From contig JAOZGP010000040.1 of NCBI GenBank assembly GCA_027491735.1, forward strand, positions 1 to 22,178: a DNA stretch of 22,178 nucleotides, given 5' to 3'. Each line of letters begins with the position of its first letter. Position 1 is the stretch's first letter. The translations under genes and the position numbers were made by a program. Below the pieces are notes generated by a model. That model saw nothing but the letters and a program-made list of their open reading frames with translations, made no database searches and was not told the DNA's origin. Source of the stretch: Thermoproteota archaeon (GTDB lineage Archaea > Korarchaeota > Korarchaeia > Korarchaeales > Korarchaeaceae). This document shows, one piece after another, positions 2,859 through 5,886 of this stretch.

Positions 2859-4222
2859 CCAATCACCTCTGTGAGCTTCTTCACAATCTTCGCAAGCTCA
2901 ACGGAGTCCTTCCCCAGCAGGACTATCATAGGCTCCTTCCCCCAATCCCCCCTGTGGTAGATGACGTCAGGAACTCTCCCCACTCTTTTTATTGCTTGTT
3001 CAACCCCCCAGGGTACCGATGCTCCTTCGCGCTCCTTGATCCTTGGGGGTTCCTTCCTTCTATCGTAGTGTGAGATTGCAAGCCCCATTCTCCTCAGCTC
3101 AGCGAGGATCTCCTCGTCAAATGCTATGTTCAAGGCGGCCCTCACCTCCGCATTGTATCTCCTGGCTGCAAGTATGTACCTGGCTAGGTGTGAGCTAGCA
3201 CCGAATTCTGGTGGAGAGGATGCCCTTATCCTATTCCCAACTCTTCTAAGCCTCCCGGGAATAGCAACAATGTCTATAACGTCTACGGCATAGGGTAACG
3301 ACATTGCCACATTGATTCCAACCTCGGGCGCGATCTTCTCAGCATTATCCAGTGACTCGAGCAACTCAACCGCTTCCTCGACCCTCTTCCACGTGTGATA
3401 TCTTTCAGAGTCGTTGTAGAGTCTGGCCATAGGGTTCAGAGGGCCATGCCCAGATCCCACAGGGATGCCGAACTTTATAGCATGCGTGACCAGCTTCTTG
3501 GCCACCTTAAATGCCTCCTCCACGGAGGACCCCTTAGCCAGCTCAGCTGCTATGGCTGCCGAGAACGAACATCCCGTGCCGTGAGTGCACTTCGATCGCA
3601 TTCTCGGTGCTGATAGCTTCAGGTACCTTCCGTTGTGATACAACACGTCCACGGATTCGGTCTCCCTCAGATGTCCGCCCTTAACTATGACGGCCGCGGG
3701 ACCCATATCAGCTATGAGCCTCGCTGCTCTCTCCGCATCCTTCAAGCTCCCTATCCTGACGCCTGCAAGAACCTCCGCCTCCCGCGCATTCGGTGTAACC
3801 ACTTCGGCCATTGGCAGGAGGACCTTGATCAGCGTGTCCTTGGCATCGGATCTCAGAAGGGGAGCGCCGCTCTTCGCTATCATGACGGGGTCCACGACCA
3901 AGGGGATCTGATGTTCCCTCACCTTCTCAGCCACAGCTTCTATTATCTCGGCGGTGTGGAGCATCCCTGTCTTTGCTGCATCAACGCCGATGTCCTCCAC
4001 AACCGCATCTATCTGCGCTTTCACGACATCGATGCTTACGTCCTGAATTGCCGTAACCTCTCTGGTGTTCTGAGCTGTTATCGAGGTTAAAGCTACAGTT
4101 CCATGAACTCCTAAAGACGCAAAGGTCTTTAGATCAGCTTGTATTCCAGCTCCTCCACCGGAATCGCTGCCCGCTATCGTCATGGCTACGGGGACCTTGG
4201 AGAACACGTCTAACCAGACCAT
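2855..4222 (-). CDS. thiDN: Bifunctional HMP/HMP-P kinase ThiD fused to archaeal thiamine-phosphate synthase ThiN
   Basis: N-terminal [28 protein letters not shown] and THGTGC motifs (ThiD). C-terminal [28 protein letters not shown] (ThiN). ATG at 4222 is preferred over GTG at 4231. Confidence 0.96.
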
Positions 4223-5478
4223 CTCTCCCACCTTCTCAACAAGTATTGAAGCAGAGCGGACATCAGGAAGGAAGGCAGACTGGCTCCCACGTCGGGGAAG
4301 TGTGTGGCTATAGCGAAATAAGTTGTAAGCCCGACAATCCAGGAGATGATCGATCTGGGAACTATCCTCGGAGCTCCCTCGTAGAACTCCTCCACATCCA
4401 CCCTTCCCCTTCTCACCAAGAAGTACTCGGAGAGCATCACTCCGAAGAGAGGAACGAAACTAGCTCCTATGAGCAGTAGAAACCACTCATACTTGGACAA
4501 GGGTAGAAAGTAAGCTAGCACAGCCGATAGAATGGATATTAGGACTATCAGCTTCCACTGTCGCGCCTTGGGGAAGGCGTTCTGAATGGAAAGAGCACAG
4601 GAGTAGACATCAGCAAAGGCGTTGTCTGTCTCATCCACTAATATGAAAAGGAGAGCCATCCAGCCGAAGTAAAGGGAGAGTATGGAGGCAGCAATGAACC
4701 CCCGACCGGACATCAGAGCTAAAGCTGCTCCCAGAGAGTAGAACCATGCGTTAGCCAGGGCATATCCCAACATCGTGGAGAGCGTACAGGACCAAACCTT
4801 CGAGCTGAACCTGTTATAATCGCTGACCAGGGGCATCCAGGAGATAGGCATGGCTATCACTAGATCTAGGGCGAGAGTCCAAGGGAGACCTCCTCTTCCT
4901 CCGGAGATTGCCCACTTAGGAGTTGTTATGACCATATAGGTTATCCAGGCTGTTGATGCATAGACAAGCCATATGGCGAACTTCTCGAGCCACTGCCTCA
5001 CCACGGTGAGAGGCCCTCCCACAGCCAAGAGCATAATCACAACGGTGAACAGGACGAGGAAAAGTAGCTCACAGCCGCCGCCCAGAATGAGGGACGATGC
5101 ATCCGCCATGATTTTAAGTTCAAAGGCCGTCCATCCCACCAGCTGTATTACGTTTAGGATCGTTGCGATATAAGATCCCGCGAAGCCGAGGATAGGCCTG
5201 AGGGAGACCATGGTGGGAACTCCATGCCTCGCCCCAATCACCCCCGCTGACGCTAAGAGCGCGCTGCCTGCAATAGATCCCACAAGAGACACTAAGATCG
5301 CCTGATCAACTGTTAGAGCTGGAGCCATCAAAGCTCCGGCCTGTAGAACCAGAATGCCAACACCTAAACTCGACCAGAGGACAAACAAATCTATACCTCT
5401 TAGGATCCTGGCACTCTTGGGTACGGGCTCTATCCCCCACTCTGGAGGTCTTCTGATCTTCCATCTTGGCCCTGACAT
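4210..5478 (-). CDS. cytX: NCS1/purine-cytosine permease family transporter, CytX-like (putative hydroxymethylpyrimidine transporter)
   Basis: Multi-TM protein with [25 protein letters not shown] and DNAFADVYS motifs. Lies under a TPP riboswitch. Start revised to ATG at 5478 (SD GGAGG upstream), because the ORF-track start falls inside the riboswitch. Confidence 0.88.
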
Positions 5479-5483
5479 CGTAT

Positions 5484-5505
5484 CCCTCCAGCGGGCGCTG
5501 GAGGG
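5484..5505 (-). promoter_or_regulatory. SD-sequestering hairpin (riboswitch expression platform)
   Basis: Minus-strand CCCTCCAGCG-CC-CGCTGGAGGG buries the GGAGG SD just upstream of ATG 5478. Its GCGCCCGCTG is complementary to the aptamer 5' strand CAGCGGGCGC. Confidence 0.75.
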
Positions 5506-5525
5506 GCTGGCCAGCATAAGGAGGT

Positions 5526-5629
5526 GCGGGCACACTCCCTACGCCGGCATTACCCGGATCAGGTTCAAGGGGTCGGCGGCAGGCTAGCCGCCCTCTCAGC
5601 CGGGTTCCCCCAGCTCCCCTGGCGCCCGC
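5526..5629 (-). ncRNA. TPP (THI-box) riboswitch aptamer
   Basis: The minus strand reads GCGGGCGCC-AGGGGAGC...GCTGAGAGG...GACCCCTTGAACCTGATCCGGGTAATGCCGGCGTAGGGAGT-GTGCCCGC. It has the conserved GCTGAGA, GAACCTGAT and TAATGCCNGCGTAGGGA motifs, and P1 is GCGGGCGC/GTGCCCGC. It sits upstream of thiamine genes. Confidence 0.97.
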
Positions 5630-5886
5630 TGATCTTCAACATCAGTAGATTCTGATAAGTTTTATCCTTGCGCTTCAGCCAACCATCCTCCTCGAATTTA
5701 AAAGCCCTCGTACATATACGAGCACACAGCAGTTGAAGAGGAGCTCTACGCAGTTAAGCAAACAGGTGAGATATTTGAAGCTCATCCAAAGCAGTCCAAA
5801 AACGGGAACAGAGGAGAGATCAGATCATAAGGATGCCCAGATCACCAAAAAGTTTTTCATGGTGCAGTGAGTTGTTGGACCATCCC

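Follow-up and report, generated by a model that had tools for sequence, protein, structure and literature searches.

How could a metabolite-sensing RNA control gene expression in an archaeon, and which of its bases would do the switching? The question is raised by a thiamine locus of a Thermoproteota archaeon from the class Korarchaeia (assembly GCA_027491735.1, contig JAOZGP010000040.1, positions 1 to 22,178), the whole 22,178-nucleotide (nt) stretch of which was analysed and is called the window here. A thiamine pyrophosphate (TPP) aptamer lies on its minus strand, directly in front of a salvage operon comprising cytX, thiDN, thiW and a gene for a small P-loop protein. We consider it probable that this riboswitch spans the entire 5' leader of the operon and acts as a translational OFF switch, with the ligand-bound RNA hiding the Shine-Dalgarno (SD) sequence of cytX. 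All support for the mechanism is computational.

Aptamer, Shine-Dalgarno hairpin and anti-aptamer helix

The Rfam covariance model RF00059 matches the full-length TPP aptamer (THI element) at 5630-5518 on the minus strand, where positions are written from high to low in the direction of transcription. The match reaches 68.0 bits (E 1.1e-11), above the gathering score of 54.3, and the alignment spans model positions 1-105 without truncation. RF00059 is the sole Rfam family matched in the window, and there are no other TPP matches in this genome (1.36 Mb in 41 contigs, 88% complete). The consensus alignment displays the P1-P5 three-way junction together with the CUGAGA and ACCUGAUCCGG.UAAU.CCGGCGUAGGGA stretches, which we take to be the TPP-contacting ones in solved structures; neither stretch varies among the 24 leaders compared below. 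The aptamer sits in the leader of genes for CytX, ThiDN and ThiW, which follow directly downstream on the same strand. Model score and gene context confirm a real member of the TPP class, and its aptamer presumably binds TPP. A first-pass annotation, made from the letters of the window alone, had called a canonical TPP aptamer on this strand and proposed the Infernal search that now bears it out; its coordinates were accurate to within a few bases.

The cytX start codon (ATG at 5478) is preceded by a hairpin at 5505-5484 that sequesters the SD sequence. Its arms, CCCUCCAGC (5505-5497) and GCUGGAGGG (5492-5484), enclose the loop GCCC (5496-5493), and the SD sequence GGAGG (5489-5485), which begins 11 nt 5' of the ATG, is contained within it. 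The hairpin has 9 base pairs (bp) and a folding energy of -19.4 kcal/mol (z -4.39), which none of 200 shuffled sequences equals. An SD-occluding hairpin holding GGAGG had been described in the first pass; it is present, with 9 bp in place of the 10 proposed, because the 2-nt loop drawn there cannot close.

The apex of this hairpin mimics part of the aptamer. The stretch 5498-5489, which runs from the last bases of the 5' arm through the loop into the 3' arm, resembles the 3' strand of P1 and is exactly complementary to the 5'-terminal switching strand CAGCGGGCGC (5631-5622), as the first pass had observed. Within the switching strand, 5629-5622 forms the 5' side of P1 and pairs with the 3' side GUGCCCGC (5533-5526) in 8 bp, one of them G-U, whereas 5631-5622 pairs with 5498-5489 in an alternative helix, the anti-sequestrator. 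The window contains exactly two copies of CAGCGGGCGC, one at 5631-5622 on the minus strand and the other as the reverse complement at 5498-5489; the expectation from 100 shuffles is zero. The duplex between the 5' strand and the hairpin has an energy of -24.2 kcal/mol, compared with -12.0 +/- 2.8 kcal/mol for shuffled 5' strands, and none of 500 shuffles is as good. AGGGG (5620-5616), which covers J1/2 and the 5' strand of P2, additionally pairs with CCCCU (5506-5502) of the anti-SD arm in the minimum free energy (MFE) structure of the ON state, in which the SD sequence is free. This pairing would lengthen the anti-sequestrator.

A third helix occurs in every fold of the window leader. Fourteen base pairs join 5548-5535, the 3' strands of P5 and P4 (GCCGGCGUAGGGAG), to 5523-5510, the linker CUCCUUAUGCUGGC that follows P1. 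The linker is also similar to the 3' end of 16S ribosomal RNA (rRNA; CACCUCC). As modelled, this anti-aptamer helix is incompatible with P4 and P5 and places the 3' strand of P1 in its loop, and therefore the 5' strand is freed. The two-state model of the first pass, in which P1 and an anti-sequestrator are mutually exclusive, had missed this helix; its remaining elements are supported by covariation, a consensus fold and structural ensembles in 24 leaders.

Folding of growing 5' prefixes suggests an order of events. The aptamer is the MFE structure from about 108 to 118 nt, the anti-aptamer helix appears from 124 nt, and the anti-sequestrator is complete at 146 nt, with the SD sequence open thereafter. 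This succession suggests kinetic control. In the proposed mechanism, the aptamer (P1-P5) would be the sole structure available in the early transcript, and TPP could bind to it. Binding in the brief interval between 108 and 118 nt would presumably block invasion by the linker. P1 (5629-5622 with 5533-5526) would then remain closed, the linker would stay single-stranded, and the hairpin 5505-5497/5492-5484 would bury GGAGG, such that no ribosome could load on cytX. In the absence of TPP, the linker (5523-5510) would invade the P5 and P4 3' strands (5548-5535), loop out the 3' side of P1 and release the 5'-terminal strand. The released strand would pair with the hairpin (5631-5622 with 5498-5489, and 5620-5616 with 5506-5502), and the SD sequence and start codon would be left open once the anti-sequestrator forms. 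This folding order is presumed, as is an effect on downstream genes through overlapping stop and start codons.

Conservation and folding energetics

TPP matches (E <= 0.001) are present in 27 of 40 species genomes of the class, 25 of them above the cut-off. The supposition of the first pass that riboswitches are rare in Archaea is thus untrue for Korarchaeia. Counted by genus and leaving out the window's own genome, matches occur in 2/3 genomes of g1, 5/5 of g2, 17/21 of g4 and 2/2 of g7, and in 0/5, 0/1 and 0/2 genomes of g3, g5 and g6. The comparative set consists of 24 complete leaders, each beginning 16 nt before P2 and ending at the start codon, that precede cytX (13), thiC (2) or a gene for an ATP-binding cassette (ABC)-type binding protein (9). 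Loci that are truncated or carry half-aptamers (L015, L021, L023, L024, L025, L107, L110, L111) and duplicates of loci already used (L027, L028, L029, L032, L105, L106, L109) were excluded. The leaders were aligned by MAFFT from sequence alone (alignment A1).

Complementarity between the 5' strand and the SD hairpin is widespread in this set. In 22 of 23 Korarchaeal leaders, the 14 nt before P2 pair with the hairpin apex and 3' arm at duplex energies of -15.6 to -30.5 kcal/mol, and the duplexed hairpin segment ends 7-13 nt 5' of the start codon. An SD-like motif precedes the downstream start codon in all leaders. Across the 14 pairs of the anti-sequestrator (A1 columns 3-16 with 152-165), 85.7% of alignment cells are paired, compared with 43.5-50.0% when the partner is slid by 1-3 columns. 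Four further pairs between the P2 5' strand and the anti-SD arm (columns 17-20 with 148-151) are formed in 95 of 96 cells, and the anti-sequestrator thus extended to 18 pairs is 88.7% paired. P1 is paired in 98.4% of cells and the sequestrator hairpin in 83.8%.

Five anti-sequestrator pairs undergo compensatory, two-sided change. At columns 8-160, for example, C-G occurs 15 times, A-U seven times and U-A once, and columns 13-155 hold 13 A-U and eight G-C pairs. Two-sided change affects 26 cells, against 8.5 +/- 2.4 in shuffles, and the covariation score is 0.325 against 0.203; neither value is reached in 500 shuffles. P1 itself shows compensatory change at two pairs. The 5'-strand columns covary with the P1 3' strand as well, and therefore one strand tracks two partners. 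RNAalifold, given the alignment alone, returns the anti-sequestrator and the anti-aptamer core as its consensus. When 5' strands are shuffled locus by locus, no shuffle in 500 matches the window, and at most 25 in 500 do so in 16 of 23 leaders. When 5' strands are swapped among clades, C and G are clearly best with their own partners; the swaps are only partly informative because most clades have nearly identical P1 helices. The anti-aptamer helix is paired in 91.7% of cells, compared with 44-54% after sliding. The linker is presumably conserved because it pairs with the P5 and P4 3' strands in this helix.

A few loci depart from the common arrangement. L023 (G019:C2:749598-749709) and L111 (G051:C18:4205-4281) are half-aptamers that retain the 3' half and a CUCCUUA linker without the 5' half, and neither has a recognisable SD hairpin; the L023 remnant lies 1.6 kb upstream of an intact riboswitch. 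In L002 (G002:C4), the thiC frame downstream of the riboswitch has an in-frame TAG where its L022 homologue has GAG, which may reflect a mistake in sequencing, pseudogene formation or recoding.

Folding energies were compared for the alternative structures of the window leader. The leader MFE is the ON state at -92.8 kcal/mol (z -4.5). At 37 C, the aptamer combined with the SD hairpin has -87.3 kcal/mol, and the anti-sequestrator combined with the anti-aptamer helix, leaving the SD sequence free, has -92.9 kcal/mol. At 85 C, the MFE is the ON state (-24.7 versus -23.5 kcal/mol). In unconstrained ensembles, the median pair probability is 0.93 for the anti-sequestrator, 1.0 for the anti-aptamer helix and 0.0 for P1.

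Accessibility of the ribosome site responds to P1 as the mechanism predicts. SD opening, defined as the unpaired probability of six SD columns, is 0.69 in the unconstrained window leader at 37 C and falls to 0.00 when P1 is enforced or the 5' strand is barred from pairing; at 75 C, the corresponding values are 0.77, 0.01 and 0.05. Medians over the 24 leaders (unconstrained, P1 enforced, 5' strand barred) are 0.365, 0.01 and 0.05 at 37 C and 0.65, 0.02 and 0.18 at 75 C. Locking P1 lowers SD opening by at least 0.3 in 14 of the 24 leaders at 37 C and in 21 at 75 C. Barring the linker has a median cost of 12.3 kcal/mol at 37 C. SD opening in the window is then 0.01 at 37 C and 0.27 at 75 C, against 0.69 and 0.77 when the linker is free to pair. 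A fall of at least 0.3 on barring the linker occurs in eight of 24 leaders at 37 C and in seven at 75 C.

Several results weigh against this account of the switch. With 15 nt of coding sequence appended, the 37 C MFE is a mixed fold in which the anti-aptamer helix coexists with the SD hairpin (-93.6 kcal/mol, 0.7 kcal/mol below the ON state), and the apo state may thus be only partly open. The first G of GGAGG (5489) falls within the anti-sequestrator itself. When the 5' strand is barred, SD opening drops by 0.3 or more in just 11 of 24 leaders at 37 C and 12 at 75 C. L007, a leader from the same genus, has a weak duplex of -9.0 kcal/mol, and the per-locus shuffle test is weak (more than 25 in 500) in seven of 23 leaders because their sequences are GC-rich. 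The number of two-sided pairs, five against 3.9 in shuffles, is unremarkable (108/500), and the 24 leaders share kinship, so that they are not independent events. Changes in the anti-aptamer helix are one-sided (G-U/G-C exchanges on the linker side only) with almost no covariation, which is uninformative because the aptamer side is invariant. Finally, locking P1 in the window costs 10.4 kcal/mol at 37 C and 5.9 kcal/mol at 75 C in a nearest-neighbour model that omits tertiary contacts of the aptamer. This cost plausibly exceeds what a ligand could contribute at equilibrium at cellular concentrations. In this simple model it is too high for equilibrium switching by ligand alone, and kinetic (co-transcriptional) control must therefore be assumed.

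Host signals, salvage operon and rival explanations

The host is confirmed by its gene content to be archaeal and Korarchaeia-like. The contig carries the archaeal hallmarks NurA/HerA, an XPB helicase with DUF790, ThiD-ThiN and a split MetE, and the nearest named CytX relatives belong to metagenome-assembled genomes (MAGs) of Thermoproteota archaea (85-86% identity), followed by Kor1/Kor3 and Candidatus Korarchaeum sp. (60-73%). A bacterial origin, which the first pass had named as grounds for rejecting its proposal, was not found in this taxonomic check of hallmark genes and CytX relatives.

The leader appears to begin almost at P1. A TATA-like box, AUAAAACUUA (5665-5656), is the most AT-rich 10-mer, with its centre 31.5 nt upstream of the P1 core; in the 24 leaders, the box is centred at a median of -30 from P1 (range -23.5 to -43.5). 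Archaeal transcription starts follow the TATA box at a regular spacing, here about 26-27 nt from the box centre. The conserved box thus predicts 5632-5633, in agreement with the start near 5632 expected in the first pass, and the transcription start site probably lies near 5632-5634, that is, 2-4 nt upstream of P1. If so, the riboswitch begins within a few nucleotides of the mRNA 5' end. An ATCAG-N6-CTGAT palindrome at 5656-5641, between the box and the predicted start, was considered as an operator and dropped: the genome contains four such sites against about 1.3 expected, and the others are not near thiamine genes.

Translation in this host uses SD-led initiation. The 16S rRNA of the window's genome ends in ...GGAUCACCUCCC (its 3' end is also given as ...CACCUCCC), and 5-mers complementary to it occur at -20 to -8 in 412 of 1265 long open reading frames (ORFs; 32.6%), compared with 209 (16.5%) in a control window. 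They have a 4-5-fold peak at -13 to -9, and the cytX GGAGG starts at -11. No terminator signal was found in any of the 24 platforms: in each of them U runs reach a length of 2 at most, which leaves no terminator of the bacterial type or with a U tract.

The genes behind the switch encode a putative pathway for precursor import and use. cytX (5478-4210) encodes an NCS1 permease that is a putative hydroxymethylpyrimidine (HMP) transporter (PF02133, E 4.5e-21); its score of 292.6 bits against TIGR02358 (thia_cytX) is just under the curated cut-off of 309.85. It is followed by a thiD-thiN fusion (4222-2855) for HMP/HMP-P kinase and thiamine-phosphate synthase (PF08543 and PF10120; NF006346, 624 bits versus 528). 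The likely thiDN ATG at 4222, whose choice as the start is presumptive, overlaps the cytX stop codon (4212-4210) by 13 nt. Next is thiW (2858-2322), which encodes an energy-coupling factor-type S component for the thiazole precursor (PF09512; TIGR02359, 149.9 bits versus 84.35), and the thiDN stop and thiW start overlap as ATGA. A 206-codon ORF (2350-1730), whose start may lie inside thiW, encodes a small P-loop nucleoside triphosphatase with the Walker A motif GDVGSGKT. All four genes are on the minus strand. The overlaps make translational coupling along the operon plausible, and control of the whole operon by the riboswitch, as proposed in the first pass, would be one consequence.

The P-loop protein belongs to no described family. 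It has about 190-206 amino acids (aa) with conserved NDLSIYLQAG and GNAYYG motifs, and matches no Pfam or NCBIfam family. The 33 relatives returned lack functional names, except for one source label of 'cytidylate kinase', and those with organism names are from Korarchaeota. Comparison of its profile to PDB sequences yielded only matches at the level of the Walker A motif (best E 0.0015, HerA), and among 27 family members compared with Pfam, hits were confined to weak, generic P-loop families (DUF87 in 10, AAA_22 in 8, AAA_16 in 6). In 10 of 16 other genomes that have the gene, it lies on the same strand about 3.2 kb downstream of the riboswitch, with the four-gene order kept. Among the 40 genomes of the class, none yielded a convincing ThiM (PF02110); the best match (41 bits) is partial and lies inside ORFs of about 510-540 aa. 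Because the operon imports a thiazole precursor through ThiW, the P-loop protein is a candidate for the missing thiazole kinase, or else for an ATPase serving ThiW. ThiC (PF01964) was not found in the window's own genome (G000, 88% complete), and hits to Thi4 (PF01946) were limited to short cross-matches to a cofactor motif; this organism may need to import both thiamine precursors. The riboswitch marks the operon, including this uncharacterised protein, as thiamine-related.

A second potential regulator is encoded in the same genome. ThiR is reportedly an archaeal thiamine repressor, a ThiN-domain regulator that responds to thiamine phosphate, as Rodionov and colleagues are said to have described in 2017. 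It resembles the system studied here in controlling archaeal thiamine genes and differs in being a protein repressor that acts on DNA rather than an RNA. A ThiR-like protein of 315 aa, with a weak N-terminal helix-turn-helix and a ThiN domain (PF10120, 119 bits), is encoded at G000:C24:14427-15371 (minus strand; L113:1468-2415, minus strand). Full-length ThiR-like hits occur in eight of 40 genomes (G000, G001, G005, G007, G009, G015, G025 and, as a partial hit, G018), and the riboswitch is present in only one of these, that of the window. RNA-based and ThiR-like thiamine control thus look nearly complementary within the class. The first pass had supposed that archaeal thiamine genes are usually under ThiR instead; the window's genome encodes a ThiR-like protein besides the riboswitch.

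How far the switch reaches is the point on which an alternative has most substance. TPP might control cytX only, with thiDN, thiW and the P-loop gene translated from their own ribosome sites whatever the TPP level, and we regard this as a serious possibility that we nevertheless somewhat doubt. Counting against whole-operon control, thiDN and thiW carry SD-like motifs of their own: the likely thiDN ATG has AGGUG 11 nt before it, the thiW ATG is closely preceded by GAGGUGAU, and both motifs match the 16S rRNA 3' end. On the other side, the overlaps of 13 nt between cytX and thiDN and of ATGA between thiDN and thiW are an arrangement often linked to coupled translation, and the four-gene order behind the riboswitch is conserved in 10 other genomes. 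A different process could also be targeted. It seems unlikely that the aptamer, although real, acts on transcript elongation or mRNA stability, for example through nuclease sites, and that the SD hairpin is incidental. The bacterial relatives of the cytX riboswitch do appear to work via terminators, and archaeal riboswitch mechanisms are essentially untested, a fluoride riboswitch being the one natural case determined experimentally (PMC8241225). However, U runs exceed 2 nt in none of the 24 platforms, the switching structure holds the SD sequence itself at the start-codon distance preferred by the genome, and the hairpin arms track the SD sequence in three gene contexts.

The complementarity between the 5' strand and the hairpin apex might instead be functionless, either a by-product of GC-rich sequence or a duplicated P1 3' strand, with an SD hairpin that is constitutive or temperature-sensitive. 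Korarchaeia are presumed thermophiles, which makes an RNA thermometer conceivable; moreover, shuffled duplexes in this GC-rich background already average -10 to -19 kcal/mol, and seven of 23 leaders fail to outdo 25 in 500 shuffles. We nonetheless consider such an origin very improbable, given five compensatory pairs that include G-C to A-U exchanges also tracking P1, a register-specific signal (85.7% versus 44-50% slid), conservation of the pairing before three unrelated genes, unaided recovery of the helix by RNAalifold and a chance expectation of zero for the exact 10-mer of the window. Equally improbable, and rejected, is a reading in which translation starts at an AUG in the linker (5517-5515) that is in frame with cytX, either as the real cytX start or as the beginning of a regulatory upstream ORF; the hairpin region would then be coding. 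This AUG is present in 19 of 24 leaders and is in frame with an open path to the main start in ten, including the window, but it is missing in five and out of frame in nine of the 19. It is preceded by CUCCUU and no SD sequence, base pairing to the unvarying strand of the aptamer accounts for its conservation, and every leader has an SD-like motif before the downstream start. Translational repression of cytX by TPP is the reading carried forward here.

Comparison with known systems

The TPP class, SD-sequestering logic and the occurrence of riboswitches in archaea are already known, as a 2017 survey records (McCown et al. 2017, PMC5473149). The same survey counts 79 archaeal riboswitches in Euryarchaeota, six in Crenarchaeota, one in Korarchaeota and one in Thaumarchaeota, with TPP and fluoride the commonest classes. 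The aptamer class is identical to that of the window; the survey is an aptamer census, and 27 of 40 class genomes are matched here. No literature on Korarchaeal, Bathyarchaeal or archaeal TPP expression platforms, or on how widely the platform occurs in Korarchaeia, was found in a search that left most subscription journals and supplements outside its reach. What this case adds is a well-resolved platform that mirrors a bacterial one. It will not surprise a specialist, and its value is that of a precise, testable archaeal case.

Riboswitches of the same aptamer class precede cytX in other lineages. Chloroflexota CytX proteins are 46-53% identical to that of the window, and in most of 15 leaders (L047, L065, L066, L070, L071, L075, L078, L080, L081, L085, L087, L090, L092, L095, L104) the aptamer is followed by a GC-rich hairpin and a U run, that is, an intrinsic terminator, with an unpaired SD sequence after it where the start region is in view. 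This architecture indicates that control in Chloroflexota is transcriptional rather than translational. In MAGs titled Bathyarchaeia or Bathyarchaeota, a TPP aptamer (63-78 bits) is found at all 13 cytX loci scanned. At five of them (L043, L048, L057, L060, L062; about 1391-1510 of each locus), the 3' side of P1 is followed directly by the probable start codon, GUG or AUG, and GGAGGGA within the aptamer precedes this codon by 6-8 nt, so that the aptamer would itself contain the ribosome site. The other eight loci have a long AU-rich linker followed by UUUUGGAGG.

On balance, we lean towards the view that Korarchaeia have swapped the hairpin-plus-U terminator found on most of the bacterial cytX leaders compared for a lineage-specific, modular platform of three helices, used before three unrelated thiamine genes and alternating phyletically with a ThiR-like regulator. 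Such a platform would consist of the switching strand at the 5' terminus, the linker that builds the anti-aptamer helix, and the SD hairpin with its apex resembling the 3' strand of P1. With terminators in Chloroflexota and an aptamer-embedded ribosome site in Bathyarchaeia, the same aptamer and gene would illustrate a sensor rewired to suit each host's machinery, and the alternation of RNA-based with ThiR-like control would be seen inside one class. If the mechanism is correct, this is the first archaeal metabolite riboswitch whose working can be read, and tested, base by base. Riboswitch control of archaeal genes is largely untested, and this family offers a covariation-backed model with named nucleotides to mutate, as well as 24 natural variants ahead of three kinds of genes as test material.

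A fluoride riboswitch is the sole natural archaeal riboswitch determined experimentally, as stated in a 2021 paper (PMC8241225). The Thermococcus kodakarensis example described there is likewise natural, from a thermophilic archaeon and thought to be translational. It differs in its ligand and aptamer, induces expression and has been tested experimentally, whereas the riboswitch of the window is known from sequence alone.

The closest mechanistic relatives are the E. coli thiB and thiM riboswitches. Like the Korarchaeal platform, they combine a TPP aptamer, a sequestering stem that holds the SD sequence and forms once P1 has been stabilised, and a helix that competes with P1 and prevents sequestration. 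In the window, the SD sequence is held in a helix when the aptamer is closed, a conserved and covarying helix excludes both P1 and the sequestrator, the host uses SD-dependent initiation, and no intrinsic terminator lies between aptamer and start codon. By analogy with thiM and thiB, TPP would be expected to lower translation of cytX. Strand displacement is the common logic of the thiB and Korarchaeal platforms, judging from a study of thiB (bioRxiv 10.1101/2022.08.24.505126). In thiB, the linker carries a copy of the P1 5' side, which folds back on the P1 3' side to give a local anti-sequester hairpin; the window's anti-sequestrator is not built from the P1 3' side and the adjacent linker. 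In the Korarchaeal platform the shared strand is the P1 5' side, located at the predicted 5' end of the mRNA, and in thiB it is the 3' side, such that one arrangement is the mirror image of the other. The Korarchaeal version further differs in carrying its mimic of the P1 3' side in the apex of the sequestrator, in using a long-range helix that encloses about 125 nt, in requiring a separate anti-aptamer helix, and in operating with an archaeal promoter and ribosome at what is probably a different growth temperature.

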